A DNA stretch of 64,000 nucleotides, taken from contig JACPJR010000031.1 in assembly GCA_016187565.1 (NCBI GenBank), positions 9,796 through 73,795 on the forward strand, written 5' to 3'. The notes below the pieces were generated by a model, which did no database searches, was not told the DNA's origin, and was given only the letters and a program-made list of their open reading frames with translations. Position numbers and translations under genes: made by a program. Shown one piece after another: positions 29,625 to 57,980 of the stretch. The stretch's first letter is position 1; the number at the start of each line of letters is the position of its first letter. Origin of the DNA: Candidatus Woesearchaeota archaeon (lineage in GTDB: Archaea; Nanobdellota; Nanobdellia; Woesearchaeales; JACPJR01).

Positions 29625-31430
29625 TTGTCAATAGGGGTACATTTTATGAAAAAAGTCGTTGCCATTGTCCAAGCGCGTATGGGTGCTTCACGATTACCAG
29701 GAAAAGTCCTCATGCCTCTTTTAGGAAAACCTCTTCTTTTGCATATTCTGCAGCGGTTACAAACAGTAAAAAGACTTAATCATATTATTGTAGCAACAAC
29801 TACAAGCAATGAAGATAATGTTCTTGTGGAACATCTAGATTCTTGGAACATATCTTACTATCGTGGATCTGAAGATAATGTGCTTGATCGATTTATCAGA
29901 GCTGCAGAATCAACTCATGCAGATATTGTTGTAAGGATCTGTGCAGATAGCCCGCTTATTGAGCCAAACGAAATTGATAAAATGGTTGAAATAATCCTCG
30001 AAAAGAATGCTGATTATGTTATGGTTAAGTCAGGTGTCTTATGTATGCATGAAGGTTTTGAAGTAGTAACGCTAAAAGCACTTCGACACCAGCTTGATTT
30101 TTCTGATGGGAGTTATGTTAAAGAGCATGTTACTGCGTTTATTCGAGAACATCCTGAAAAGTTTGCTATTGCTTATTTTGTTCCTGAGCAAGAATATCAA
30201 CGTAAAGGATTTCGATTATCAATTGATACCATGCAGGATTTTCGATTTATGGAGCAGATTTATAAACGCCTCTACAATGAGGGAACCATTGTTGATCTCA
30301 AACAAGTTACGCAGCTTCTTGATCAACATCCAGAGATTCTTGTTATTAATAAGGAGGTAACACAGAAGGGATTACATGAGAAGAGTTTACGTATAGCTTT
30401 CAGAACCGATGGTGATTCCCAAATGGGCATGGGGCATGTCTTTCGCTGTTTGCATCTTGCAAGGACATTTCAAAACGCCTTTCATTTGGGTATTATTTTT
30501 TTAGTAAAAAAATCAACCGTTGCAAAAGAATTTATTCAGAAGCAAGGTTATCCTCTTATTTCCATTAGCGAGCACTTCAGTGAGGTAGAGGAGGTTGATT
30601 TCATTGCATCAATCTTGTTAGAAAAAAAAATAGATTGCCTTATTATTGACCAAAAGATACCACCATCACAACAATATTTTCGCTCGTTGAAAACAATTTC
30701 ACCTACCAAGCTTGTTGTTATGGATAAAATCACCAATTTTCCTGAGGTAAATGTAACCATCCTCCCGACAGCACATGTTGACCAGAAAAAAATTATTCCT
30801 GAATCTCAGGAAAGAACATTTTTTGGGATAGAATATGCTGTTTTTTCAGACGAACTTCTCAAGCGAAAAAAAACACATCTTAATCCAACGGTGAAGAATA
30901 TCCTTATTTCTATGGGGGGAAGTGATCCAAGCCGAATTACGCTTCGAATTCTTTCTTATTTGAGAAAGATGAAACAGGAAACTCCAGATCAGTTCAACCA
31001 ATTTGAATGGCATGTAGTGATTGGACCTGCATTTGACTTTATTCACGAAATAAAAACATTTATGAATGAAAACCAGTTACCCCTTAAAATCCATGAGGGG
31101 ATTACTGATTTATCTCCGTTGCTTGAACAAGCTGATCTGTGTGTTGTTTCGTTTGGTATTACACCTTATGAAGCACTTGCTGTTCGAGTTCCTGCGCTTG
31201 TCGTCAGTCATGATCAGCCAAACTATACAGATTCGCTGATTTTTGAAAAACTTAATACGTGCATTAATCTTGGATATTATGAAAACCTCACTTACGAGCG
31301 TTTCAACAAAGAGCTTTTTGAGATGATAGGTAATCGGGAGTTGCGGGAGCGAATATTTGAACGCGACAAAGACCTTATCAGAGGAAATGGGAAAGAAGCA
31401 ATTGCGAAACTTATACGAGGGATCTTATGA
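29625..31430 (+). CDS. pseF/pseG: Fusion: CMP-nonulosonate cytidylyltransferase (PseF-like) + UDP-2,4-diacetamido-2,4,6-trideoxy-altropyranose hydrolase (PseG-like GT28 fold)
   Basis: N-terminal KVVAIVQARMGASRLPGKVLMPL (CMP-NeuAc synthetase family). The C-terminal half has IAFRTDGDSQMGMGHVFRCLHLA and ISMGGSDPSRITLRIL, which are the PseG signature blocks. Confidence 0.75.
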   Translation: MSIGVHFMKKVVAIVQARMGASRLPGKVLMPLLGKPLLLHILQRLQTVKRLNHIIVATTTSNEDNVLVEHLDSWNISYYRGSEDNVLDRFIRAAESTHADIVVRICADSPLIEPNEIDKMVEIILEKNADYVMVKSGVLCMHEGFEVVTLKALRHQLDFSDGSYVKEHVTAFIREHPEKFAIAYFVPEQEYQRKGFRLSIDTMQDFRFMEQIYKRLYNEGTIVDLKQVTQLLDQHPEILVINKEVTQKGLHEKSLRIAFRTDGDSQMGMGHVFRCLHLARTFQNAFHLGIIFLVKKSTVAKEFIQKQGYPLISISEHFSEVEEVDFIASILLEKKIDCLIIDQKIPPSQQYFRSLKTISPTKLVVMDKITNFPEVNVTILPTAHVDQKKIIPESQERTFFGIEYAVFSDELLKRKKTHLNPTVKNILISMGGSDPSRITLRILSYLRKMKQETPDQFNQFEWHVVIGPAFDFIHEIKTFMNENQLPLKIHEGITDLSPLLEQADLCVVSFGITPYEALAVRVPALVVSHDQPNYTDSLIFEKLNTCINLGYYENLTYERFNKELFEMIGNRELRERIFERDKDLIRGNGKEAIAKLIRGIL

Positions 31431-32035
31431 TTGAGCGTTATCGAAAACGACGGGAAGAGGAAATGCAACGACAAAGTTCTGACGCTTATTGGCTTTGGTA
31501 CAATGAAAGGTATATTAAAACCTACAAGCGCATATTAGGACAACGATTTGACTCAAAAATTCTTGATCTTGGTTGTGGTGCAGGCCATCTTGTTTTAGCA
31601 TGTAAAAAGCAGGGTTATGATGCAGAGGGTATTGATATTGAGACCTGTGATTTTGAGAATGAAAACCTGCCCTACAAGGATCAGACCTTTAACCTTGTTA
31701 TTGCTAATGCAGTAATTGAGCATATCGGATCGCCAGATCACATTTTTCAAGAAGCATATCGCGTTCTTAAGCCAGGAGGATCTTTTATTATGCGAACTCC
31801 AAATTGGCAACAAGACGCCAAAAACTTTTACAATGATCCAACCCATAAAAAGCCTTATACTCCTCATGGATTGAAAATGATTTTACAAATGCATGGATTT
31901 AGCGTTCCATTTATAGAGCCAGGACTTATCGAGAAGCCAGCTTTCTATTGGAAACTTCCTTCACCAATTAAATGGAAAATCGCTTCGATCATTCCTGGAG
32001 GAACAAAATCCATTCTTGCAATTGGAAGAAAATAA
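31427..32035 (+). CDS. Class I SAM-dependent methyltransferase
   Basis: Motif I ILDLGCGAGHLV and motif II/post-I YRVLKPGGSFIM. It overlaps the preceding stop by 4 nt. Confidence 0.7.
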   Translation: MIERYRKRREEEMQRQSSDAYWLWYNERYIKTYKRILGQRFDSKILDLGCGAGHLVLACKKQGYDAEGIDIETCDFENENLPYKDQTFNLVIANAVIEHIGSPDHIFQEAYRVLKPGGSFIMRTPNWQQDAKNFYNDPTHKKPYTPHGLKMILQMHGFSVPFIEPGLIEKPAFYWKLPSPIKWKIASIIPGGTKSILAIGRK

Positions 32036-32041
32036 AATACT

Positions 32042-33499
32042 ATGTCAAATAAAATCAATGTTATTGGACTAGATGGTGCAACTTTTTATCTCCTTGATAA
32101 GATTGTTGCTCGGGGATTAACACCAAACATCCATCGTATTATGACGCAAGGTTACAAAAATGTCTGTACTTCTATTTATCCGCCCCTTTCCCCTCCTGCA
32201 TGGGCGACTATTGCCACAGGGGTTAATCCTGCAAAGCATGGTGTCTTTGACTTTTTTTATATGCCTTTTCGGCGAGAAGGAAGTTATGCCCGGCGGATTG
32301 TGAACACGACACAGTGGAAAATAGACACGGTTTTTCACCACTTTAATAAAGCCGGTTATAGCTGTGGTGTTATTAATTATCCCATGGGTTACCCACCGTT
32401 AATCGTGAACAAGTATTTTATTTCTGGTCTTGGAACACCTGGGCTTGATACTGATTATACCTATCCTCTCGATCTCAAGAAAGAGATTGCTCAACAATTC
32501 CCTGATTATCTTATTGATGTTGGCGGTGGTATTGGCCAGACCTCAGAGGCTTTTTTGCAATCCTGCAGACAGATGATGCTCGAGCAAATAAAGGCAGCAA
32601 AATATCTTTTTGATAAGTATCCTGTTGATATGTTTTACGCTGTTTTTGCTTTTACTGATCGCTTTCAGCATTGGTTTTGGCAATTTATTGATCCTCAATC
32701 TCCCTCCTATGGAACATGGAAAAAACCCATTGAGGTCTATGAAGAATTTTTTAAAGAAGTAGATGCTTTTTTTGGTCTTCTCCTTGAAAGAATGCATGCT
32801 GATGATGTTCTTCTTGTTCTTTCAGATCATGGGTTTGGTCCTATCAAAAAATATTTTTACATCAACAAGTTCTTGTATGAGGCAGGGCTTCTTCATTTTC
32901 TTCCCGAAGCAAAAATATTCCACCAAAAAAATACCCCTGACGGGTTACTCACTTCTATTGATTGGACAAAAACCGTTGCTTATTCATTAGGTGATTATGG
33001 TGAGATCCGTATTAATCTTAAAGGCCGTGAACCAAAGGGCATTGTTCAGCCTGGAGAGGAGTATCACCGCCTCCGTCTGTTTATCAAAAATATTTTGGAA
33101 AATGTCGTAGACCCAGAAGACGGCAAAAAAATAACTGATACCGTCTTTTTGAAAGAAGAGGTTTATAACGGGCCAATGCTTCATGAGGCTCCTGATCTTC
33201 TCTTTACTTTGCGACATTGTTCATATTTGTGTTACATTAATGGGAGAGGAAATGAATTTTATAATTACGATAAGGTTCTTTTCAGACCACCAAGCAAAAA
33301 CGAAATGGAGCAGTGGACAGGAGGCCATACCCTTGACGGCATTTTTATGGCATATGGTAAAACCGTAAACAAGGATGCTGTTATTCCAAAAATAACCCTC
33401 TATGATATCCCGGCAACGCTTCTCTTCCTCAAGGGAATACCTCTGCCGCAATCACTTGATGGAAAGGCTCTACAGGAATTATTTATTAATCATCCTTGA
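32042..33499 (+). CDS. Alkaline-phosphatase superfamily protein (type I phosphodiesterase/nucleotide pyrophosphatase family)
   Basis: VIGLDGATFYLLD...GLTPNI...SIYPPLSPPAWATIATGVNPAKHGVFDF is the family N-terminal metal-site block. 485 aa. Confidence 0.65.
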   Translation: MSNKINVIGLDGATFYLLDKIVARGLTPNIHRIMTQGYKNVCTSIYPPLSPPAWATIATGVNPAKHGVFDFFYMPFRREGSYARRIVNTTQWKIDTVFHHFNKAGYSCGVINYPMGYPPLIVNKYFISGLGTPGLDTDYTYPLDLKKEIAQQFPDYLIDVGGGIGQTSEAFLQSCRQMMLEQIKAAKYLFDKYPVDMFYAVFAFTDRFQHWFWQFIDPQSPSYGTWKKPIEVYEEFFKEVDAFFGLLLERMHADDVLLVLSDHGFGPIKKYFYINKFLYEAGLLHFLPEAKIFHQKNTPDGLLTSIDWTKTVAYSLGDYGEIRINLKGREPKGIVQPGEEYHRLRLFIKNILENVVDPEDGKKITDTVFLKEEVYNGPMLHEAPDLLFTLRHCSYLCYINGRGNEFYNYDKVLFRPPSKNEMEQWTGGHTLDGIFMAYGKTVNKDAVIPKITLYDIPATLLFLKGIPLPQSLDGKALQELFINHP

Positions 33500-34822: not shown

Positions 34823-35077
34823 TTGAATACCATGAATGAACGTTTGATCGATGATAACCAACAGGTATCTATAGCATTGCCGAAATCCTTAGTTCAGGAG
34901 CTTGAACACCATATGAAGCAGTATGGCTATACGTCTCTTTCCGACTATGTGCAGCATCTTCTCAATGAATCATTAGTTACCTTGAACGCTTCTCAGAAAG
35001 GTACCAGTAGCGGGTTTAGTCAAGAGGATGAGGAACGAGTTAAAGAACGGTTAAAGCAGCTTGGTTATCTTAACTAG
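34823..35077 (+). CDS. Ribbon-helix-helix (CopG/Arc-like) small DNA-binding protein
   Basis: 84 aa with QVSIALPKSLVQELEHHMKQYGY, a beta-strand/helix pattern typical of RHH proteins. Confidence 0.45.
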   Translation: MNTMNERLIDDNQQVSIALPKSLVQELEHHMKQYGYTSLSDYVQHLLNESLVTLNASQKGTSSGFSQEDEERVKERLKQLGYLN

Positions 35078-35136
35078 CTACAGGTAATAGCAATAATGAT
35101 ATGACCCTACATCTGTAGATGATAGACGATTGTAAG

Positions 35137-35181
35137 GAGAATAAAGAAAATAAAGAAAATAAAGAAAATAAAGAAAATAAA
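35137..35181. repeat. 9-bp tandem repeat (GAAAATAAA) x5 (first copy imperfect), between an AGGAGA Shine-Dalgarno-like element and the cysD ATG at 35191
   Basis: The repeat is read directly from the sequence. If the upstream ATG at 35119 is used, it encodes an (ENK)5 N-terminal tail. Confidence 0.9.
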
Positions 35182-35190
35182 GATAGTACC

Positions 35191-35994
35191 ATGGAATACC
35201 TCGACGAACTTGAAAGCAAAAGTGTCTATGTCATCAGGGAAGCATATCATCAATTTAGAAATCTAGCGTTACTTTGGAGCATTGGTAAGGATTCAACAGC
35301 ACTACTTTGGCTTTGTCGGAAGGCCTTTTATGGAAAAATTCCCTTTAAAGTTCTCCATATTGATACTACGTTTAAATTTCCTGAAATGTATGCTTTCCGT
35401 GATAAATATGCTCGAGAATGGAACCTTCCGTTGGTTATTGTTAAGAACGAGGAAGCATTAGCCCGAGGAGTCAATTACGATACCTGTGATTCTTTGACCG
35501 TTTGCACTGAACTAAAAACCAATGCTCTTAAACAGGCTGTTGCAGCGTATGGATTTAAGGCCCTCTTAGTAGGCATCCGAAGAGATGAACATGGCATTCG
35601 GGCTAAAGAACGTTATTTTTCTCTACGAAACCAGGATTTTCAGTGGAATTATAAGGCGCAGGCGCCTGAATTATGGGATCAGTATAAAACCAAGCAAGAA
35701 GAAGATGAACATATCCGGGTTCATCCGTTGCTTCACTGGACCGAACTTGACATTTGGGAATATATCAAGAGAGAAAATATTCCTATTAACACCTTGTATT
35801 TTGCGAAAAATGGTAAGCGCTATCGTAGTCTTGGTTGTATGCCTATAACGAAGCCTATTGTTTCAAATGCCGACAATGTTGATAGAATTATCGAAGAGAT
35901 TCGGACATCAAAGACCACTGAACGTGCAGGACGGGCGCAGGATAAAGAACAGATGCACGCCATGCAAAAATTACGTGCATTGGGTTATATGTAA
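35191..35994 (+). CDS. cysD: Sulfate adenylyltransferase subunit 2 (ATP sulfurylase small subunit, PAPS-reductase fold)
   Basis: LWSIGKDSTALLWL PP-loop and CysD-family blocks (HIDTTFKFPEMY, LVGIRRDE). Homologues start near MEYLDELES (35191). The ORF track offers an alternative in-frame start at 35119. Confidence 0.85.
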   Translation: MEYLDELESKSVYVIREAYHQFRNLALLWSIGKDSTALLWLCRKAFYGKIPFKVLHIDTTFKFPEMYAFRDKYAREWNLPLVIVKNEEALARGVNYDTCDSLTVCTELKTNALKQAVAAYGFKALLVGIRRDEHGIRAKERYFSLRNQDFQWNYKAQAPELWDQYKTKQEEDEHIRVHPLLHWTELDIWEYIKRENIPINTLYFAKNGKRYRSLGCMPITKPIVSNADNVDRIIEEIRTSKTTERAGRAQDKEQMHAMQKLRALGYM

Positions 35995-36050
35995 GGGTAG
36001 GGGTAGGTAGCTTTTGGGATGAAAGTAATGACAGTAATGAGGGTAATGGT
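35995..36050. repeat. Short tandem repeats in cysD-cysN spacer (GGGTAG x2; three AGTAATGA-like 9-mers)
   Basis: gggtaggggtaggtag at 35995-36010, and gtaatg at 36025, 36034 and 36043 with 9-bp phasing. Confidence 0.6.
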
Positions 36051-36069
36051 GATATCTGGTGATAAATAA

Positions 36070-37335
36070 ATGAATAACAGGATTGCTTCTCTTCCTCAAG
36101 AAAATCGAGAAAATCTTCGTGTAGTTATTGTTGGCCATGTTGATCACGGCAAGTCTACCTTTATTGGAAGATTACTCTATGATACGAATAGTTTACCTGA
36201 TGAGAAGATTCAAGAGCTTAAAACTATCGCCGAAGCCCTTGGAAAAGATATCGAGTTCAGTTATATCATGGATCATCTACAGGAAGAGCGTGATCAGGGG
36301 ATCACTATTGATACTGCCCAAATTTTCTTCAATACCATAAAACGACACTATACCATTATTGATGCTCCGGGCCATGTTGAATTCTTGAAGAATATGATCA
36401 CTGGAGCTTCACAGGCAGATGCAGCAATCTTACTTGTTGATGTAGCTGAGGGAATACAGGAACAGACAAGGAGGCATGCATATCTCCTGAGTATGCTTGG
36501 ATTCCATCATATTGTTGTTTTATTGAATAAGATGGATTTAGTTCATTACCAACAAGAAGTATTTGATGCACTTGTATCCTCTCTTGGCGTATTCCTTGCT
36601 CCGCTTCATATGCATGCCCAGTACATTCCTTTTTCAGCAAAAAATGGAGACAACCTTGCTGTTCTTTCTCCAAATATGCCTTGGTATAAGGGAAAAACCG
36701 TACTTGATGCCTTGGATGCATTGCCCTTGCAAAAAGACTTACGTCAGTCTCCACTTCGTTTTCTTGTTCAGGACATTTATAATTTTGATAAACGAATCTA
36801 CGTCGGAGTTGTTGGAAGCGGTAGCCTGAATAAAGGGGACAAGGTTGTTATCCTTCCTTCAGGTGAAAAAACATGCATTGCCTCTCTCGAAGAATGGAAC
36901 CGCTCGATAACTACTGCAGAAGCGGGAAAATGTCCAGGGTTTATAACAACAACAAAAGTCTTTATTGACCGTGGAAATGTTATTGTAAAAGAACATGAAA
37001 CACATCCTATTATTACAAAAAATTTTACTGCTCATCTTTTTTGGCTAGAGAGCAAGCCCTTTGTAACAGGCGAACGGCTCATGTTTCGATGTGGGACCCA
37101 GCAGACGCTTTGTGATGTCACGGTAAAAAAGACCATAGATTCTTCTACCCTGGCGCTTATTGCAGAGTCGCCTGATGAAATTAAGAATCGGGAAGTAGCC
37201 GAAGTTGTTATTACTACAAGTCAGCCGGTGATCATAGAGAATTTCCATAATGTTCCTGAACTAGGAAGATTTGTGCTTGAGAGGAACGACACTTGTGCAG
37301 GAGGCATTATTATAGCTAATGGTGATTCTGTATGA
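36070..37335 (+). CDS. cysN: Sulfate adenylyltransferase subunit 1 (GTPase CysN, no APS-kinase domain)
   Basis: G1 [10 protein letters not shown]3 DAPGH and G4 NKMD, with EF-Tu-like domains II/III. 421 aa. Confidence 0.85.
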
Positions 37336-38060
37336 TCGTTGTTCTTGCGATTGATGCCTTAGAGTTTGACCTTGTTGAAAAGTTCTCCTGTACACATTTA
37401 AAGCAGCAGTTTTATGGGAAGACTAACATCCAAGAATTCTCAGAGCCTCGTACCATGGTCTTATGGAGTTCGTTTATGACCGGTATAAATAAAGAAAAAG
37501 AGGTTTTGGCAGGTGGAAATCAAGAGATGTGGGATAAACAGTGGTCTTATGATGAAACCTTCTTCAAGACTTTTAAGAATCCTTGTGTTCTTGATCTGCC
37601 AGGATACAGTTATGATCTCAAAGTGCACGAAAAATCTCGGCTTTTACTTAAAAAATTTTTTCTTGTCAATTCTCCCGAAGAAAAAGAGGCTATACGTAAA
37701 GAGTACAATCAGGATGCATTTGTCCATCATCGAGCTATAAAAACTGCCTTTTTTGAGGCTTTACAGAGTAATCATGATTTTGTTCTTGGCTATTTCTCGG
37801 TTGCCGATGTTATCGGTCATCTCAATTTTGGAAATACCCTTATGATGCGGATGATCTATAGTGATTTAGAGGAGATTGCATCGAAGATTATGGTAAAGAA
37901 ATGCATCATTCTCTCTGATCATGGCATGTATGGCGTTGGCATGTTTGGAGATCATTCTTCATATGGTTTCTGGAGTACGAATTTCCGGGATTTAGGGTTA
38001 CCCCGTATTACGGATTTTCGGAGCATTATTGAAGAACTGAACAACGTTGAAATAAAATAG
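37332..38060 (+). CDS. Small alkaline-phosphatase-superfamily protein (phosphodiesterase/sulfatase-like fold)
   Basis: [12 protein letters not shown]-terminal metal-site block and a C-terminal LSDHGMYG motif. The start overlaps the cysN stop (ATGA), so the two are probably translationally coupled. Confidence 0.5.
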
Positions 38061-38122
38061 AATCTTCTCTTTTTAGGAAGAAACCTTTTTAAAGAACAAG
38101 CCTTCCCCTCATCAGGGGAATC

Positions 38123-40030
38123 ATGGACGTAACAACGATTAAAAATCTCTATCTGAAAGCAGTAGGCATTCGAGAAGATGTCCTCCATATGCTGAAGTTT
38201 GCAGGGAGTGGTCATCTTGGTGGATCTTTTTCTGCGGCCGAATTATTGAGTGTTTTATATTTCCATGAACTAAAACTTGATCCCAAACATCCAAATTGGG
38301 AAGAACGAGACCGTTTTGTGCTTTCAAAAGGGCACTGTTGTCCTGGATTGTATGCCGTACTTGCTGAAAGAGGCTTTTTCTCAAAAGAAGAATTTAAAAT
38401 GCTAAGAAAGGTCAATGGAAATTTACAGGGCCATCCTGAGCGCATTACTCCAGGAGTTGAATTTATTGCAGGATTCTTGGGACAAGGGCTTTCTGCTGGT
38501 TTAGGTATGGCATTAGGCTTTAAGCGGATGAAAAAAAACAATAGGATTTATGTTATGATCGGAGATGGAGATAATCAAGAAGGCCAGACGTGGGAAGCAG
38601 CACGCTTTGGTGTCCACAATAAACTGGATAATCTCGTAGCAATATATGATTATAACAATCTCCAGAGCGATGACCGAACAGAAAACATCCTCACGATTAA
38701 AGATCCTGAAAAGCAATGGACCAGTTTTGGATGGCATGCTATTGTTATTGACGGGCATCATGTTGAGCAGATTGTGCGTGCGTTGACAGAAGCTAAGACC
38801 ATCAAACAGAAACCAACGATTATTATTGCCCACACCCTCAAGGGAAATGGGGTTTCCTTCTATGCTGATAATCCTAACTCTCATGGAAGCTGGGCACCGT
38901 CAGATAGTGATTACAAAAATGCCCTTGCAGAGCTCCAAGAAACACGTAATAGACTGGTGAGAGAGGAATTTCCTCTTGCTCGTAGAGAATTGACGTTTTT
39001 CAATCCACAAATTGATGTTCGTTCGAGTAAAGATAATTGTTCGACAGATCAACAGGGAGAAGCATTTGAGCCCTATGTTTTTAAGAAAGAGGAGAAGTAC
39101 AGCTTACGAAATGCATTTGGTATGGCTGCCGCAAACCTTGCCAAGAAGTACGATAACTTTGATCTTTTTGATGGCGATGTTCGTGGTGGAACCATGACTT
39201 GTATTTTTGAAAAACATTTTCCCCATCGTTTTATCCAATGTGGCATTGCTGAACAAAACATGATGAGTGTAGCTGCAGGATATCATCTGGCAACAGAGAG
39301 AATTCCTATTGTTACTACCTATGCTGCGTTTACCTCGCTACTCACTGCAGCACAGTTTAGAAATAACATTGCCATGCAGAAACTTCCGGTCATAGTTGCA
39401 TCGAGCCACAACGGAACAGATACTGGACCAGATGGACCTACGCATCAGGCAATTGAGGATTTAGGTGTCTTTCGAACCTATCCTGGGGTTGTTGTTATTT
39501 CTGCTGCTTGTCCGTATCAGATTCACGGCTTGTTAGAGGCAGCACTCTTAGGCAAGAAGCCAGTCTACATGCGAACAGGAAGAAGCCCTACCCCTGTCTT
39601 GTACGGTCCGTCTGAACATTTTAGCATTGGTAAGGATACAGTACTGAGAAAAGGGACTGACATCACGTTTTTTGCAACAGGCCTTCTCGTTAAACGAGCC
39701 CTTGATGCAGCAGAACAATTGAGCAGTGAGGGCATTGATGCTGAGGTTATTAATATCGCCACGCTTAACCCCCTTGATACTCAATTGATTTTACAATCAG
39801 TCAGGAAAACTAAGCGTGCACTTGTTGCCGAGGATCATTATCTTCACAATGGATTAGGCGGAGCAATAAGCCAGTTTTTGGGAGAACAATTTCCCGTGCC
39901 CCTAAGATATATTGCTCTCCGAACCTATGCTGAATCAGGAGATCCTCAGGAATTGGCAGCAAAGTATCACCTTACATCAAATGATATTTTTTTAACCGCT
40001 CAAGAAATGATTCGAGGTGATTTACATTAA
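38123..40030 (+). CDS. tkt: Transketolase, fused N-terminal (TPP-binding) and C-terminal (pyrimidine-binding) sections
   Basis: The N-part (GSGHLGGSFSAAELLSVLYF...RDRFVLSKGH...IGDGDNQEGQTWEA) matches split-type TK N subunits. The C-part (FGMAAANLAKKYDNFDLFDGDV...CGIAEQNMMSVAAG) matches TK C subunits. A ~100-aa linker joins them. Confidence 0.85.
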   Translation: MDVTTIKNLYLKAVGIREDVLHMLKFAGSGHLGGSFSAAELLSVLYFHELKLDPKHPNWEERDRFVLSKGHCCPGLYAVLAERGFFSKEEFKMLRKVNGNLQGHPERITPGVEFIAGFLGQGLSAGLGMALGFKRMKKNNRIYVMIGDGDNQEGQTWEAARFGVHNKLDNLVAIYDYNNLQSDDRTENILTIKDPEKQWTSFGWHAIVIDGHHVEQIVRALTEAKTIKQKPTIIIAHTLKGNGVSFYADNPNSHGSWAPSDSDYKNALAELQETRNRLVREEFPLARRELTFFNPQIDVRSSKDNCSTDQQGEAFEPYVFKKEEKYSLRNAFGMAAANLAKKYDNFDLFDGDVRGGTMTCIFEKHFPHRFIQCGIAEQNMMSVAAGYHLATERIPIVTTYAAFTSLLTAAQFRNNIAMQKLPVIVASSHNGTDTGPDGPTHQAIEDLGVFRTYPGVVVISAACPYQIHGLLEAALLGKKPVYMRTGRSPTPVLYGPSEHFSIGKDTVLRKGTDITFFATGLLVKRALDAAEQLSSEGIDAEVINIATLNPLDTQLILQSVRKTKRALVAEDHYLHNGLGGAISQFLGEQFPVPLRYIALRTYAESGDPQELAAKYHLTSNDIFLTAQEMIRGDLH

Positions 40031-40754
40031 ACTCAACAATAAAGTCGCTATTGTTACTGGTTCAAGTAGAGGGATTGGCAAATCCATTGCCCTTGCCTTT
40101 GCCAAAGAAGGTGCAGATGTTGTTATTACCTATAAATCTGAAGAGACAAAAGCAAAGGAAGTTGTAAACGCTATTAAGGCATTGAAGAGGGATGCAATTG
40201 CTGTAAAAGTCGATGTAAGTCAACGTAAAGATTTAATTGTTCTTGTCCAAGAAACCATGAAACATTTCAGAAGGATTGATATTTTGGTGAACAATGCAGG
40301 GATTAACAAACCCAGCGACTTTCTTGATATCACTGAAGAAGATTGGGATGCTATCATTGATACGAATCTCAAAGGAGCATTTTTATGCTCCCAGGAAGTC
40401 TTGAAAGTAATGAAGGAACAAAAAAGTGGTGTTATCATTAACATCTCCTCAGTGAGCGGTCAATATGGAGGCCCACGCACATGCCATTACGCGGTTTCTA
40501 AAGCTGGTCTCATCATGATGGGGTATAATCTTGCACTGAACTTTGCCAAGTACAATATCCGCGTTATTAATATTGCCCCAGGCGTTATCGAATCAGAAAT
40601 GGCCAAGGCAGCTGCAAGTCTCGATCTTAAAATTCCTTTACAGCGCCTTGGTAAAGCAGATGAAGTAGCAAAAGCAGCAGTTTTTTTAGCATCTGATGAT
40701 GCAAGTTATATTACCGCCTTTACCATGAATGTCAATGGCGGCTTGTATTTTTAG
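40017..40754 (+). CDS. Short-chain dehydrogenase/reductase, FabG-like (classical SDR)
   Basis: TGSSRGIGKSIA cofactor motif, an NNAG region, and the catalytic YAVSKAG (YxxxK). It overlaps the tkt end by 14 nt. Confidence 0.85.
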   Translation: MIYIKLNNKVAIVTGSSRGIGKSIALAFAKEGADVVITYKSEETKAKEVVNAIKALKRDAIAVKVDVSQRKDLIVLVQETMKHFRRIDILVNNAGINKPSDFLDITEEDWDAIIDTNLKGAFLCSQEVLKVMKEQKSGVIINISSVSGQYGGPRTCHYAVSKAGLIMMGYNLALNFAKYNIRVINIAPGVIESEMAKAAASLDLKIPLQRLGKADEVAKAAVFLASDDASYITAFTMNVNGGLYF

Positions 40755-40784
40755 TAACTAAGTTTTAGCAACAAGGTAAATCTC

Positions 40785-42014
40785 ATGCAAAAGCGATTAT
40801 TGGTTATTGGAGGAGGACCTGAGATGGTCCCTCTGTTTTCACTCACCAAGCAAATGGGATTACAAACAGTTGTCACTGATAGAGATCCTCATGCACCTGG
40901 TTTTTTATACGCAGATGATCATATTCTTGCAAGTACCAGGGATATTAAAGAGACAGTTGAGAAGGTTCTTGTTTTTCATGCAAAAAAACCAATTCATGGT
41001 GTTATGACCATTGCTAATGATGTTCCCTTGACGGTTGCCAGTGTCGCACGTGTCTTGCACTTGCCTGAAATCCCACCGCTTGAAATTGCTGAAATATTGT
41101 CTGATAAATTCAAGATGAAAGAGGTTTTTAAGGCATCTGGTATTCCATTACCATGGTTTCAACAGATCACCACTTTTAAAGAACTTCAGCAGATTGTTCA
41201 TGAACGTGGATTTCCTCTGGTCCTTAAGCCCGTAGATAACTGTGGGGGGAGGGGTGTCTTTCGGCTGACATCTGTGGATAATCTTCAGGAAGCATTCTCT
41301 ACTGCACAGACCTTTTCACGACGAGGAACCCTCCTTGTTGAAGCTTTTCTTGAAGGCCCACAGGTAAGTACTGAGTCCATTGTCTATCACGGAAGGGTTT
41401 ATACTATTGGATTTTCTGATCGGAATTATGAATTTTTAGAGAAGTATGCACCCCACTTCATTGAAAATGGTGGTGAGCTTCCGTCTCATCTCTCTCCAGC
41501 TGATCAACGCAAAATGTACCAGCTTCTGGAGAAAACTGCGCAGGCGCTTCATCTTACCAATGGTGTTCTTAAAGGGGATCTCATCCTCCACAATGGTGAA
41601 GCGAAAATTATCGAAGTGGCTGGCAGGTTAAGTGGGGGTTACTTTTGTACCCATGAAACACCACTTTCGACCGGTATTGAAATTGTTGTACCTGTTATTA
41701 AGATGGCTCTTGGAGAAAAGGTTGATGAACAGGACTTGAAACCAAAATACCACCGTGGAGTTTGCCAGCGTTATTTTTTTCCAACAGAAGGGAAGGTTGT
41801 TGCTGTTGAGGGCATTGATCAAGTCAAAAAACTTCCATGGGTAAAGCTTTTCTCGCTTAATGTTAAGATTGGAGACATTATTAAAAAACCAGTAGATTCT
41901 AATGCAAGTGTAGGAGTTATCATGACTATTGGAGAAACCAGAGAAGAGGCATTGGAGCGAATGGCTGAGGCAATGGCCCATATTAAGATAAAAACCATTA
42001 AACAAACATTGTGA
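40785..42014 (+). CDS. ATP-grasp ligase (carboxylate-amine ligase-like)
   Basis: Pre-ATP-grasp + ATP-grasp layout: LVLKPVDNCGGRGVFRL, with downstream acidic/Asn catalytic regions. 409 aa. Confidence 0.7.
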   Translation: MQKRLLVIGGGPEMVPLFSLTKQMGLQTVVTDRDPHAPGFLYADDHILASTRDIKETVEKVLVFHAKKPIHGVMTIANDVPLTVASVARVLHLPEIPPLEIAEILSDKFKMKEVFKASGIPLPWFQQITTFKELQQIVHERGFPLVLKPVDNCGGRGVFRLTSVDNLQEAFSTAQTFSRRGTLLVEAFLEGPQVSTESIVYHGRVYTIGFSDRNYEFLEKYAPHFIENGGELPSHLSPADQRKMYQLLEKTAQALHLTNGVLKGDLILHNGEAKIIEVAGRLSGGYFCTHETPLSTGIEIVVPVIKMALGEKVDEQDLKPKYHRGVCQRYFFPTEGKVVAVEGIDQVKKLPWVKLFSLNVKIGDIIKKPVDSNASVGVIMTIGETREEALERMAEAMAHIKIKTIKQTL

Positions 42015-42042
42015 AAACATAATCCAAAAAACGGAGGGTATT

Positions 42043-42726
42043 ATGAATATTTTAGTAGTCGCTGCACATCCTGACGATGAAGTGTTGGGTTGTGGAGGAA
42101 CAATGGTTCATCATGTTCGGCAAGGAGACAAGGTTTTTATATTAATCACCGGAGAAGGTATTACTGCACGGTATACTCATCGTGATCAAGCTAATTTACT
42201 GCATCTTGAAAACCTCCATGTTCAAACACAGAAAGTTGCCGATATTTTAGGAGCGACAAAGCTTTTTACTCATAATTTTCCTGACAATCGTTTGGACAGT
42301 GTTCCTTTACTTGATGTTATTAAAGTGGTTGAGAAGGTTCAACAAGAGGTAAAACCAGAAATGGTGTATACCCATCATCGTGCAGATTTAAACATAGACC
42401 ATCGTATTTTGTATCATGCAGTGCTGACTGCATGTCGACCTATGCAAAAGAGTCGTGTTAGAAGGATCCTTTCATTTTATAATATCTCATCAACTGAATG
42501 GAATGTACCTCCTCCTAAAGATCTTTTCTTTCCTAATGTCTTCGTTGATATTACTCGGTCGATGAAAACAAAGCTTAAAGCAATGAGTATCTATAAAACA
42601 GAACTGTGTAAATATCCTCATCCACGATCCTTAAAGGCAATAGAAAACACAGCGAAATATTGGGGTAATTGTGTTGGTTTTGAAGCTGCAGAACCGTTCA
42701 TGCTTGTTCGTGAGAGGATTACATGA
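42043..42726 (+). CDS. PIG-L/LmbE-family N-acetyl-sugar deacetylase
   Basis: Canonical N-terminus ILVVAAHPDDEVLGCGGTM, and HxxH in YTHHRADLNIDHR. Confidence 0.85.
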   Translation: MNILVVAAHPDDEVLGCGGTMVHHVRQGDKVFILITGEGITARYTHRDQANLLHLENLHVQTQKVADILGATKLFTHNFPDNRLDSVPLLDVIKVVEKVQQEVKPEMVYTHHRADLNIDHRILYHAVLTACRPMQKSRVRRILSFYNISSTEWNVPPPKDLFFPNVFVDITRSMKTKLKAMSIYKTELCKYPHPRSLKAIENTAKYWGNCVGFEAAEPFMLVRERIT

Positions 42727-43676
42727 GAACAGCATTTATTGGTGCGCTTATTGGCGGATATGATGCACTCAAAGCTTTGCTTGATAATGGGATTACTATT
42801 GATCTTGTTTTTACGCTTGATGAACATTATGCCGAAAATGTGAGCTGCTTTCAGTTATTTGATCCGCTCTTTAAGCAATACAATGTTCCATACTCTAAAA
42901 TAAAGGATATCAATGATCCAGAAAATATTTTGCGACTAAAAAATCTTAAACCAGATTTAATGATTGTTAATTGCTGGTCGCAACTTCTTACCAAGGAAAT
43001 TTTGGACATTCCTAGCATAGGAGTCCTTGGCATGCATCCTACCTTATTGCCAAAACATCGGGGACGAGCTCCAATTCCCTGGGCCCTTATCCACGGCCTT
43101 GATAAAACTGGTGTTACCTGGTTTTTTTATAATGAGAAACCAGATGCAGGTGATATTGTTGCGCAGCGTGAAATACCCATCACCTTTCAAGACACGGCGA
43201 TGTCCCTGGGCAAAAAGGTTGATACGGTTGCTATCGAACTTCTTATTGAGGCAGTAAAAAGCATCCAACAAGGCATCTACAAAAGAATTCCTCAGGATCA
43301 TACCCAGGCAACCTATTGGAAGCGAAGAAGACCAGAGGATGGTATTATTGACTGGAACAAAACAAATCTTGCATTGTATAATTGGGTACGAGCGTTGACA
43401 AGACCATATCCTGGAGCATTCACGTATCATAACGGAAAAAAACTCTTCGTGTGGAAAGCATCTCTTCCCTTAAAGGATTTAGCAGAGGTATCATTCACCA
43501 CAGAGGATGTCCGTACATCAGGTACTATTATGAATGTTGACCCTGATGGAATTACGGTAAGTACAGGACAAGGGAATCTTATCCTTGAAGAAGTCCAATA
43601 TGAAGATGAACCAGTTCTTAATTTAGCTCTTGCGACACTACACTTTCAAATAGGTGAGGTACTTGGTAATGTCTGA
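42723..43676 (+). CDS. Formyltransferase (Fmt/ArnA-N-like, N10-formyl-THF-dependent), probable sugar N-formyltransferase
   Basis: Formyl_trans_N catalytic block NCWSQLL...GVLGMHPTLLPKHRGRAPIPWALIHG...TGVT (HxSLLPxxRG motif) and a C-terminal Formyl_trans_C-like beta domain. It overlaps the LmbE stop (ATGA). Confidence 0.8.
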   Translation: MRTAFIGALIGGYDALKALLDNGITIDLVFTLDEHYAENVSCFQLFDPLFKQYNVPYSKIKDINDPENILRLKNLKPDLMIVNCWSQLLTKEILDIPSIGVLGMHPTLLPKHRGRAPIPWALIHGLDKTGVTWFFYNEKPDAGDIVAQREIPITFQDTAMSLGKKVDTVAIELLIEAVKSIQQGIYKRIPQDHTQATYWKRRRPEDGIIDWNKTNLALYNWVRALTRPYPGAFTYHNGKKLFVWKASLPLKDLAEVSFTTEDVRTSGTIMNVDPDGITVSTGQGNLILEEVQYEDEPVLNLALATLHFQIGEVLGNV

Positions 43677-57024: not shown

Positions 57025-57980
57025 ATGCACGCTTCAAATTTTCCTAAATTTCCTAAAATCTCAGTAATTGTTATTAATTATAATGGTATTGGTTTTCTTA
57101 AAGACTGTTTTGAATCATTAGAATCAGTTGATTATCCAGACTATGAGGTTTTTTTAATGGATAATGCCTCAACTGATGACTCTGTTACTTATGCTCAGAA
57201 AACATTTCCTTGGGTAAAAATCCTTGCGTTTGACAAGAACTATGCCTTTGCTGAGGGATATAACCGTGCAGTTAATTCTATCACTAGTGAATACCTTTAT
57301 TTTCTGAACAATGATACAAAGGTTGACAAGAATTTTTTGAAAGAGGCAATAAAGCCCATGCTTGAAGATAGTACTATTGCTGTGTGTGGGAGTAAAATGT
57401 ATTTTTATGATAAACCGGCTCATCTCAATTATGCTGGTGGTAAAATAACTCAGGTCTTGCCTGTGGCGGAGCAATGCTTGTGAAAAGATATCTTTTTCTT
57501 GATATTGGAGGATTTGATCCCTCGTACGTTATCTATTTTGAGGATGTTGATCTTGCCTGGCGTGCATGGCTCTATGGGTATAAGGTGGTTTATGTGCCCA
57601 TGTCTGTTGTGTATCATAAGTATGGAGGATATTTTGGGGGTTTTAATAAATCCAGCAGAAGTGTTTACCTCGGCCAAATCAATCGTTTAAGTAATCTTTG
57701 GAAGAATGCAGAACCGTTTACTGTTTTTAAAGGAAGCCTTCTTTCATTACTGTATGACCTCGTGAAAAGTGCTTATTTTTTACGCTACCTCCGATTTTCT
57801 CGATGGCTTGCTTTGCATAAAGGAAACATCGCATTTCTTATGAAACTACCAAGAGTATTGCAACAACGAAAGACCGTACAACAGCGACGGAAATATTCAG
57901 ATAAATGGTTGATGCAGAACAACATCATTGCAAGCCTCAATGAGAGTATTGCGGTCTTTTTTCGACTTTTGAAGATATAA
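57025..57980 (+). pseudogene. GT2 glycosyltransferase interrupted by a frameshift near 57440-57476 (pseudogene or homopolymer sequencing error)
   Basis: ORF 57025..57483 carries the GT2 N-terminus (KISVIVINYNG...LMDNASTDDS). ORF 57474..57980, in another frame, carries the C-terminal GT2 block. Extending the second frame back gives ...SGLACGGAMLVKRYLFLDIGGFDPSYVIYFEDVDL. The junction lies in the aaaataact run. Confidence 0.6.

Follow-up and report, generated by a model that had tools for sequence, protein, structure and literature searches.

The CysD and CysN subunits of ATP sulfurylase synthesize adenosine 5'-phosphosulfate (APS) from sulfate and ATP, with the hydrolysis of GTP as the driving force. 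To our knowledge, all textbook examples of biological sulfation proceed through 3'-phosphoadenosine 5'-phosphosulfate (PAPS) that is supplied by APS kinase (CysC). In Halobacterium salinarum, deletion and heterologous expression have demonstrated that Agl30 and Agl31, two sulfatase-like proteins of the alkaline phosphatase (AlkP) superfamily, sulfate the N-linked tetrasaccharide, and the sulfate donor was not addressed in that study (Zaretsky et al. 2025, PMC11980604). Here we describe a genomic region of a Candidatus Woesearchaeota archaeon (contig JACPJR010000031.1, positions 9,796 to 73,795; this stretch of 64,000 nucleotides is referred to as the window) in which the genes cysD and cysN are followed by the gene of a 242-amino acid (aa) AlkP-fold protein, termed mini-AlkP, and preceded by that of a small protein of 84 aa. 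We tentatively interpret these genes as a four-gene archaeal sulfate-activation cassette for PAPS-independent glycan sulfation, in which the mini-AlkP would consume APS, probably by sulfuryl transfer via the residue Thr41, and we give this interpretation somewhat less than an even chance. Even on the most cautious view, the cassette represents a novel form of the sulfate-activation pathway, and among its products there may be a sulfotransferase or APS-processing enzyme of a new class.

Archaeal cysDN genes have been noticed before. Those of the anaerobic methanotrophs ANME-1 and ANME-2 and of Ca. Methanoperedens were listed as assimilatory by Yu et al. 2018 (PMC6286981), who noted with surprise that Ca. 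Methanoperedens has both Sat and CysDN and who also recorded cysDN in the cultured methanogens Methanoregula formicica, Methanococcoides methylutens and Methanolobus tindarius. The joint presence of Sat and CysDN in Methanoperedens fits separate roles of the two enzymes. In all of their vent DPANN metagenome-assembled genomes, Cai et al. 2021 (PMC8091004) found a sulfate adenylyltransferase, along with widespread 'arylsulfatases', and read these genes as sulfur cycling. A literature search covering archaeal PAPS-independent sulfation, cysDN of DPANN archaea and APS-dependent sulfotransferases yielded no description of a cysDN-miniAlkP cassette. The cassette is widespread in archaea, as shown below, and apparently undescribed.

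The deduced CysD protein matches PF01507 (1.9e-44) and the NCBIfam model NF003587 (360 bits, cutoff 195) and carries the PP-loop ATP-binding motif SIGKDS (SxGKDS type). Since it falls short of the cutoffs of two stricter models (NF009214, 288 versus 413 bits; TIGR02039, 283 versus 397 bits), it belongs to a divergent subfamily. The alignment with CysD of Pseudomonas syringae (1ZUN_A, 5.5e-66) extends into the C-terminal ..GY tail. The CysN protein, annotated at NCBI only as 'GTP-binding protein', matches GTP_EFTU (2.6e-48), narrowly passes the CysN model TIGR02034 (336.5 bits, cutoff 336.1) and contains the G1, G3 and G4 motifs of EF-Tu-like GTPases, including NKMD. Its match to the 632-position model NF004035 of the bifunctional CysN/CysC protein is confined to positions 19-432, and a kinase domain is therefore absent. 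By these profile and motif matches, the two proteins are the catalytic and the GTPase subunit of an ATP sulfurylase (sulfate adenylyltransferase), and GTP-coupled synthesis of APS is predicted from the family. The two genes are separated by 75 nucleotides (nt). Related loci, 26 in number, have a gene for a TauE/TSUP permease inserted at this place, which supports a sulfur oxyanion as the substrate of CysD and CysN.

Homologues of CysD align only from residue 25 of the open reading frame (ORF) as listed, whose first 24 codons cross the AATAAAGAA repeat located at 35140-35183. Because the homologues begin there, the listed start at 35119 is probably 72 nt too far upstream, which had escaped the sequence-only reading, and the predicted start is the ATG at 35191. 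Translation from 35119 produces a low-complexity KENKENKEN N-terminus that has no counterpart in the homologues. The AATAAAGAA repeat may have a leader or regulatory function, or it may be a tract prone to slippage.

The stop codon of cysN overlaps the start codon of the third gene by 4 nt (gtATGAtc). The product of this gene, annotated at NCBI as 'hypothetical protein HYW21_07950', scores 15.0 bits against PF01663 (E = 0.019), which is below the gathering cutoff of 23; many of its homologues have a precomputed PF01663 match. Profile-profile comparison with hhalign aligned the 242-aa family to the PF01663-positive family of about 500 aa found in the same islands (95% probability, E = 2.9e-8), and the residues D8, T41, D159/H163 and D196/H197 coincide in this alignment with matching residues of the larger family. 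Together with H208, which lies outside the alignment with the ~500-aa family and was assigned from its invariance and position only, these residues (D8, T41, D159, H163, D196, H197 and H208) are invariant among 31 aligned sequences. T41 occupies the nucleophile position, nine residues before the conserved T50-G51. The seven invariant residues are predicted to constitute the canonical two-metal ligand set of AlkP and of the nucleotide pyrophosphatases/phosphodiesterases (NPPs), plus the threonine nucleophile.

An AlphaFold2 model calculated with this alignment (pLDDT 90.9, pTM 0.90) displays a long two-helix insertion at residues 96-144. A Foldseek search of the PDB returned 38 matches at E <= 1e-3, and all matches listed there are AlkP-superfamily proteins (NPPs, sulfatases, alkaline phosphatase (AP) and YejM). 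The top matches, ENPP4, ENPP5, ENPP6 and ENPP1, the Xanthomonas (Xac) NPP and choline sulfatase, are weak (E ~1e-4, template modelling (TM) score 0.45-0.5, identity 10-15%), and a profile search of the PDB sequences gave marginal matches only (ENPP7, E = 0.023; cofactor-independent phosphoglycerate mutase (iPGM), E >= 0.5), so that the protein has no close solved relative. On account of the fold, the invariant metal ligands and the profile-profile match, and despite the sub-threshold Pfam score, the 242-aa protein is a member of the AlkP superfamily and an outlier to PF01663. From the model and the alignment it appears to be a core-only, cytoplasmic, NPP-like enzyme with a predicted intact active site. 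The earlier sequence-only reading of this DNA had named cysD and cysN, had seen the start of an AlkP-fold gene in the end of cysN and had pointed to a second, larger AlkP-family protein upstream, and these assignments held; the small protein has the AlkP fold, on the weak matches just given, and all of its metal ligands.

The mini-AlkP family comprises 548 homologues of about 240 aa. Among the best 120 of these 548, most are 60-70% identical, and the named ones are nearly all archaeal. The family is small and separate, with 35 representatives at E<1e-30 among 1.8 billion, and no fusion of CysN with a mini-AlkP was present among the best 150 representatives. Several other identities were considered for the 242-aa protein and rejected. 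A formylglycine-dependent (type I) sulfatase is not compatible with the nucleophile region P-R-T-M-V-L-W, which contains no C/S-x-P-x-R motif, and PF00884 did not match; a PAPS-dependent sulfotransferase was dismissed upon the lack of a Pfam match of the PF00685, PF13469 or PF03567 type, and an APS kinase upon the lack of a match of a CysC probe in the window. A role in PglZ/BREX-type defence was likewise discarded, as PADLOC matched neither the 242-aa protein nor the 84-aa and 485-aa proteins of the region.

A genome scan with the mini-AlkP family profile collected 80 loci, which are spread over no fewer than 10 lineages of archaea. The DPANN group is represented by Woesearchaeota, Pacearchaeota, Aenigmarchaeota, Nanoarchaeota, Undinarchaeota, Micrarchaeota and Diapherotrites, and the other lineages are Methanosarcinales, Methanoperedens, Methanothrix, Methanofastidiosa, Methanomicrobiales, Thermoplasmatota, Hadarchaeota, Bathyarchaeota and Altiarchaeota. 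The 80 loci also include a few short contigs from bacterial bins. Four of them (L032, L051, L052 and L063, binned as Cloacimonadota, Hydrothermota, Desulfobacteraceae and Planctomycetota) encode mini-AlkP proteins that are 56-63% identical to the window protein, and such contigs may reflect either horizontal transfer or mis-binning of archaeal DNA. Where the flanks allow, the gene order is cysD, a gene for a TauE permease or a DUF2061 membrane protein, cysN and mini-AlkP. The cysN stop overlaps the mini-AlkP start or lies within 16 nt of it in 62 of 75 loci, and the identical 4-nt overlap recurs in 30 of the 75. No locus with enough upstream flank had a mini-AlkP gene apart from cysN, and the other glycan genes vary. 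Genes for Wzx, glycosyltransferases, epimerases or UDP-glucose dehydrogenase were found in 32 of the 45 loci of at least 12 kb, and genes for HIT-family nucleotide hydrolases adjoin cysD in five loci. In the Woesearchaeota contig JAFGLI010000007.1 (L001/L079, 6985-7984), a toxin-antitoxin-like nucleotidyltransferase/HEPN pair splits cysN from mini-AlkP, and PIN/RHH (ribbon-helix-helix) pairs come thereafter. This locus is among the few with broken coupling, and it suggests that the cassette resides in a mobile or recombination-prone region.

The reciprocal analysis from the cysN side covered 80 metagenome loci. With CysN proteins at identities of 50% or higher, the mini-AlkP gene was directly downstream in six of the seven loci with room for it. 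The remaining loci, with CysN proteins at most 48% identical and a bacterial-type context, had no mini-AlkP gene, and cysC was fused or adjacent in most of them. The probe for CysC was the E. coli sequence, used in tblastn. It matched nothing in the window and nothing in the cassette loci L001-L085, 85 in all, and since it detected cysC, fused or adjacent, in most of the bacterial-type cysN loci, the probe is thereby validated. The results of the probe and the synteny data together mean that mini-AlkP and APS kinase exclude each other at the position after cysN, and this exclusion extends over about 165 loci. These data go beyond the sequence-only reading: the cassette is conserved across many archaeal phyla in place of cysC and is not a local oddity.

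The genes of sulfate assimilation and of PAPS-dependent sulfation were searched for among the non-antisense ORFs of at least 120 aa in the window. They include no APS kinase, no cysH (PAPS/APS reductase), no sulfite reductase and no Pfam sulfotransferase, and none was found in the ~7 kb before the window start and the ~9 kb past the window end that are available from overlapping contigs. The sequence-only reading had seen neither an APS kinase nor a PAPS-dependent sulfotransferase and had taken the genes to serve glycan synthesis rather than sulfur assimilation, and both points agree with this search, in particular with the lack of cysH and sir in the window and the two flanks. In a true assimilatory locus, L095, cysD and cysN are accompanied by cysH and by genes for a sulfhydrylase and an ABC transporter. 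A search for the PAPS-binding (PSB-like) loop motif met with success in one of about 80 loci (L050), in two paralogous proteins, one of which was scanned and had no Pfam match. Three paralogues of cluster c369, each about 360-400 aa long, are encoded at this locus, and the motif HIGxGKTGTS is present in two.

The 84-aa protein encoded upstream of cysD is the fourth recurrent member of the cassette, a gene that the sequence-only reading had not included. Its tail ...RVKERLKQLGYLN mimics the C-terminus of CysD. The N-terminus has weak matches of the NikR or RHH type, and no Pfam family scores above threshold. Of about 80 loci, 49 have a member of the corresponding cluster (c3), and about 40 of the 61 copies on the same strand are located at most 42 nt upstream of cysD or overlap its start. 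All 67 copies end with [LIVM]GY plus 0-3 residues, typically ..LGY[LIF]x, and 63 of the 66 CysD proteins end likewise (..KLRALGYM); CysD of P. syringae has the ending ..KKRQGY. The c3 proteins are small and acidic, with about 76-84 aa and the ending ..RLKxLGY[LIF]x, and a second copy sometimes follows the mini-AlkP gene (e.g. L003, 9059-9271). The same tail is carried by short PAPS_reduct proteins, by several mini-AlkP paralogues of 290-320 aa, by three of the 21 AlkP proteins of about 500 aa and by one sulfatase-like protein. It may serve as a shared docking peptide, and our guess at the partner is CysN, probably. The PF01663 proteins of about 500 aa without the ..LGY tail (L009, L012, L020, L021, L025 and others) mostly end with a related, basic amphipathic ..K(I/L)xxLKKxGKI sequence, and the 485-aa AlkP of the window has a tail of neither type.

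Larger AlkP-superfamily proteins accompany the cassette within 10 kb in 22 of the 45 loci of at least 12 kb. The family of the 485-aa window protein (c7) occurs in 19 loci, its N-terminal core aligns with the 242-aa family, and all 21 of 21 members have Thr or Ser as nucleophile. By these sequence features, the 485-aa protein is a candidate for an accessory member of the cassette that would act as an acceptor-specific transferase. The PF00884-positive sulfatase-family neighbours have Thr at the nucleophile position in eight of eight alignable members; they therefore cannot form formylglycine and look like transferases rather than sulfatases. Moreover, a protein encoded on a JGI metagenome contig (P0268; L166, 1966-3501) naturally unites a mini-AlkP and a CysD-like PAPS_reduct domain. 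The 511-aa protein comprises a mini-AlkP homologue (E = 2e-23) and a CysD-like domain (39% identity, E = 2e-53) that is shortened and has kept the tail ..RLRALGYF. In an uncultured Methanoregula (L050, 10875-15232), mini-AlkP is directly followed by the genes of a 219-aa PAPS_reduct protein with a ..KLKKLGYL tail and of a 1233-aa protein in which a sulfatase-family domain with a Thr nucleophile is joined to a glycosyltransferase of family 2 (GT2), and in Methanoperedens (L030) the gene of a 197-aa PAPS_reduct protein overlaps that of a 420-aa sulfatase-family protein. Taken together, the P0268 fusion and the pairings in L030 and L050 make the association of an AlkP fold with an APS-binding fold a recurrent one. 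The tailed paralogues of 290-320 aa (P0136, P0146 and P0190) and the fusion P0268 are encoded on contigs of 1-3.5 kb, where the sole informative neighbour is an epimerase gene.

The features of the cassette and its immediate surroundings are compiled in Table 1.

Table 1. Features in and around the sulfate-activation cassette (positions in the 64,000-nt window)
Feature	Position	Strand	Assignment or remark
SAM (S-adenosylmethionine) methyltransferase, tightly packed with the 485-aa AlkP gene	31427..32035	+	Methyltransf_23 1.8e-21
485-aa AlkP/Phosphodiest protein, cytoplasmic, Ser nucleophile (PPLSPPAW)	32042..33499	+	PF01663 5e-35
Methyltransferase-domain protein, 417 aa	33496..34749	+	Methyltransf_23 1.4e-12
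Gene of 84-aa small acidic protein	34823..35077	+	recurrent cassette cluster c3; fourth member
9-bp tandem repeat AATAAAGAA x4.9, perfect	35140..35183	+	cysD leader or spurious ORF N-terminal extension
cysD	ORF as listed 35119..35994, 291 aa; probable start ATG 35191	+	PF01507, NF003587
cysN, no APS-kinase domain	36070..37335, 421 aa	+	GTP_EFTU, TIGR02034
Mini-AlkP/NPP-fold protein, 242 aa, cytoplasmic by sequence	37332..38060	+	fold, invariant ligands, synteny
Intergenic stretch with two T5 runs and short GC hairpin TTCCCCT..AGGGGAA	38061..38122	+	read from sequence

The cassette is embedded in a surface-glycan island that extends from about position 20 kb to the end of the window (64 kb) and carries on past it, with additional glycan genes in the downstream flank known from overlapping contigs. 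The island contains rhamnose-pathway genes and a set for a nonulosonic acid of the pseudaminic or legionaminic type (PseB-like, PseC-like, NeuB and a PseF-PseG fusion). On the 5' side of the cassette, two methyltransferase genes flank that of the 485-aa PF01663 protein, and on the 3' side genes for a transketolase, a short-chain dehydrogenase/reductase (SDR), an ATP-grasp enzyme, a PIG-L deacetylase and a formyltransferase are found. Genes for Wzx, Wzy-like and ArnT-like proteins and several GT2 enzymes are located further in the island. The stop codon of the 485-aa AlkP gene and the start codon of the 417-aa methyltransferase gene share a 4-nt overlap, and an AlkP~500 and methyltransferase pair is likewise present upstream of the cassette in the Woesearchaeota contig L001. 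The methyltransferase encoded at 31427..32035 possibly belongs to the same modification step as the 485-aa AlkP. To judge from the T runs and the hairpin, the transcription unit of the cassette may end within 38061..38122. The archaeal nature of the window, which the sequence-only reading had missed, is also apparent from genes for Cbf5 (DKCLD and PUA domains), SepF, ZPR1 and TrmB.

Two further observations concern the glycan genes of the island. In the regions 29625-31430 and 38123-43676 (+ strand), the PseF-like cytidylyltransferase is fused to a PseG-like hydrolase, and the genes after the cassette are those of a full-length transketolase and of the SDR, the ATP-grasp ligase, the PIG-L deacetylase and the formyltransferase; this unusual tailoring set suggests a heavily decorated nonulosonic acid. 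Additionally, a GT2 glycosyltransferase is split on the + strand into the overlapping ORFs 57025-57483 (152 aa) and 57474-57980 (168 aa), and the near-identical Logan contig L172 (14791-15816) has the same GT2 intact as one 341-aa gene. The split may be due to a frameshift, to strain variation or to an error in the assembly, and a glycan gene that undergoes phase variation is a further possibility.

In the scheme that we favour, CysD and CysN would supply APS, and the mini-AlkP, made in step with CysN and holding the place of the bacterial APS kinase, would remove it. Thr41, activated by the two-metal centre, would attack the sulfur of APS and not its phosphorus, AMP would leave, and a covalent sulfo-threonine enzyme would be formed, from which the sulfuryl group would pass to a hydroxyl of a sugar precursor or of a lipid-linked glycan. 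Alternatively, the mini-AlkP could pass the sulfuryl group to the larger Thr- or Ser-nucleophile AlkP and sulfatase-like proteins, or work beside them, and these proteins would supply the acceptor specificity. Such a scheme would need no PAPS. The energetics of a transfer from an anhydride to an alkyl sulfate are plausible, and as a Thr nucleophile cannot use the hemiacetal route of the sulfatases, transfer would be favoured over hydrolysis. Ping-pong sulfuryl transfer through Thr41 as such is a possibility that we put a little short of evens. With comparable reserve, and again as a proposal that could well fail, we suggest that archaea sulfate their surface glycans without PAPS and that a CysD-CysN-miniAlkP complex hands the sulfuryl group on via threonine-sulfate; the mini-AlkP would then represent a new class of enzyme, an APS-dependent AlkP-type sulfotransferase, which would be the donor route for enzymes of the Agl30/31 type, with docking by the ..LGY tail. 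A variant in which the mini-AlkP is a non-homologous, pyrophosphate-driven APS kinase would be almost equally novel. The sequence-only reading had regarded the protein as a possible unconventional sulfo- or phospho-transferase; this is consistent with all findings, the chemistry is still what we infer, and the reading as a whole is partly supported.

Several points weigh against direct use of APS sulfur. Sulfuryl transfer by the mini-AlkP is inferred. Two-metal, Thr-nucleophile AlkP enzymes such as NPPs, AP, iPGM and EptA are tuned to phosphorus, with sulfatase activity as a weak side reaction, and on chemistry alone a phosphorus substrate, for instance pyrophosphate, is at least as likely as the sulfur of APS. 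The identity of 60-70% across phyla, with glycan genes that vary, argues for a universal small-molecule substrate and not for a variable acceptor. A larger AlkP-fold candidate for acceptor specificity is present in only about half of the loci, and the similarity to solved structures is so weak (TM ~0.45-0.5; sequence E = 0.02) that pocket details are unreadable. One close cysDN locus, L086, has no mini-AlkP gene downstream. Moreover, cysC or PAPS-type sulfotransferases may be encoded elsewhere in these genomes, beyond the loci searched, and matches to the sulfotransferase family PF03567 are reported for some Woesearchaeota and Pacearchaeota in a review (PMC11625862).

Were pyrophosphate the substrate, the mini-AlkP would be either a dedicated pyrophosphatase that pulls the sulfurylase forward or a pyrophosphate-dependent APS kinase that makes PAPS, in the latter case by moving a phosphoryl group from pyrophosphate onto Thr41 and from there to the 3'-OH of APS. 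We regard this as unlikely, yet as an alternative to be taken seriously. According to textbook knowledge, the two-metal Thr chemistry of AlkP enzymes is built for phosphoryl transfer. A small substrate that is universal would agree with the very high conservation from phylum to phylum, the gene occupies the position of cysC and is mutually exclusive with it, and iPGM phosphotransferases are among the weak sequence matches to solved structures. Fusions of ATP sulfurylase with inorganic pyrophosphatase exist in stramenopiles and haptophytes (PMC2275785). However, GTP hydrolysis by CysN already drives the reaction and general pyrophosphatases are present in cells, so that the strict coupling would be left unexplained. 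The kinase version would lead one to expect PAPS-type sulfotransferases nearby, but no Pfam match was found in the window and KTGTS-motif proteins occur in only 1 of about 80 loci, and the recurrence of AlkP-fold and APS-binding PAPS_reduct pairings without CysN points to APS. The NPP-like fold would also permit a hydrolase acting at the phosphorus of APS, which would yield AMP and sulfate and serve as a safety valve or regulator against an inhibitory build-up of APS, while the larger AlkP proteins would be the true sulfotransferases. The nearest folds are indeed NPPs crystallised with AMP, NPPs are known from textbooks to cut nucleotide anhydrides at the alpha-phosphate, larger AlkP-fold proteins do occur in the islands, and the HIT-family hydrolases beside cysD in five loci are another kind of enzyme acting on AMP-X compounds. 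A futile cycle that burns ATP and GTP would nevertheless be odd as the single invariant, translationally coupled partner of the sulfurylase, and roughly every second locus lacks a larger AlkP-fold protein within 10 kb, which makes this explanation improbable.

A function unrelated to sulfate, as a glycan phosphodiesterase or as a transferase of phospho-sugar or phospho-alcohol groups that merely shares an operon with cysDN, is suggested by the resemblance to the Pfam family Phosphodiest, by the wealth of sugar-modifying enzymes in the island of the window and by EptA and LtaS, the textbook examples of AlkP-superfamily transferases that decorate envelope polymers. We consider it decidedly improbable in view of the conserved stop-start overlap, of the fusion to a CysD-like domain and of the fact that the mini-AlkP gene is never away from cysN where the upstream flank suffices, whereas the glycan genes vary. 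Ordinary assimilatory sulfate activation for cysteine, with the AlkP-fold gene as a bystander, is the reading given in the literature to CysDN of ANME, Methanoperedens and DPANN archaea (PMC6286981, PMC8091004). It appears very improbable for the cassette, as cysH, sir and cysC were not found in the 64 kb and the ~16 kb of flanks, most long loci place the cassette inside glycan islands, and the true assimilatory locus L095 differs from it in gene content (sulfhydrylase, ABC transporter, cysH). Furthermore, DPANN archaea are reported to be without de novo amino-acid synthesis (PMC8091004), and Methanoperedens also has Sat (PMC6286981).

If the mini-AlkP does use APS directly, it would establish a new sulfotransferase class and a PAPS-independent pathway, and the donor question for archaeal sulfatase-like sulfotransferases such as Agl30 and Agl31 would become directly testable. 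The interpretation of archaeal cysDN and 'arylsulfatase' genes in metagenomes, which are now assigned to sulfur cycling or to the degradation of polysaccharides (PMC6286981, PMC8091004), would change accordingly, and sulfated surface glycans would be predicted to be common in uncultured archaea, including host-dependent DPANN archaea.

Compared with the bacterial CysD-CysN(-CysC) systems (E. coli, P. syringae 1ZUN, NodP/NodQ), CysD and CysN of the cassette are orthologous in fold and motifs, with the ..GY tail of CysD kept, and NodPQ, which functions in Nod-factor sulfation, likewise represents a secondary sulfation pathway rather than assimilation. In contrast to bacterial CysDNC, the archaeal cassette has no APS-kinase domain or gene, has an AlkP-fold protein encoded directly after cysN and includes an extra mimic of the CysD tail. 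With Agl30 and Agl31, the cassette shares the setting of AlkP-superfamily proteins in an archaeal glycosylation cluster; these two proteins add sulfate, and the sulfatase- and Phosphodiest-family neighbours of the cassette look, by description, like enzymes of this kind. Agl30 and Agl31 are, however, larger and sulfatase-like by BLAST and structure, whereas the 242-aa protein is a minimal NPP-like core without PF00884, and no link of Agl30/31 to CysDN is reported. The best structural matches are the NPPs (Xac NPP, ENPP1/4/5/6; PF01663), with the same seven-residue two-metal site and the Thr nine residues before TG, but the 242-aa protein is about 140 residues shorter, is cytoplasmic, carries the insertion 96-144 and reaches a TM score of only ~0.45-0.5 at 10-15% identity. 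The PAPS-independent aryl sulfotransferase (ASST) of E. coli follows a ping-pong mechanism via a covalent sulfo-enzyme, which is the type of mechanism proposed here; it is built as a periplasmic beta-propeller, works through a sulfo-histidine intermediate and takes phenolic sulfates as donors, and it is structurally and genomically unrelated to the mini-AlkP. Agl7 of Haloferax volcanii, which we take to be of the sulfoquinovose-synthase type, was dropped as a precedent, as the respective paper gives no family assignment. The algal and oomycete fusions of ATP sulfurylase with pyrophosphatase or with APS reductase (PMC2275785) resemble the cassette in that a product-removing enzyme is tied to the sulfurylase against an unfavourable equilibrium. 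Those fusions combine a homo-oligomeric Sat-type sulfurylase with a family I pyrophosphatase or an APS reductase, whereas the cassette joins a CysDN-type sulfurylase to an AlkP-fold protein, by translational coupling or, in P0268, by fusion.

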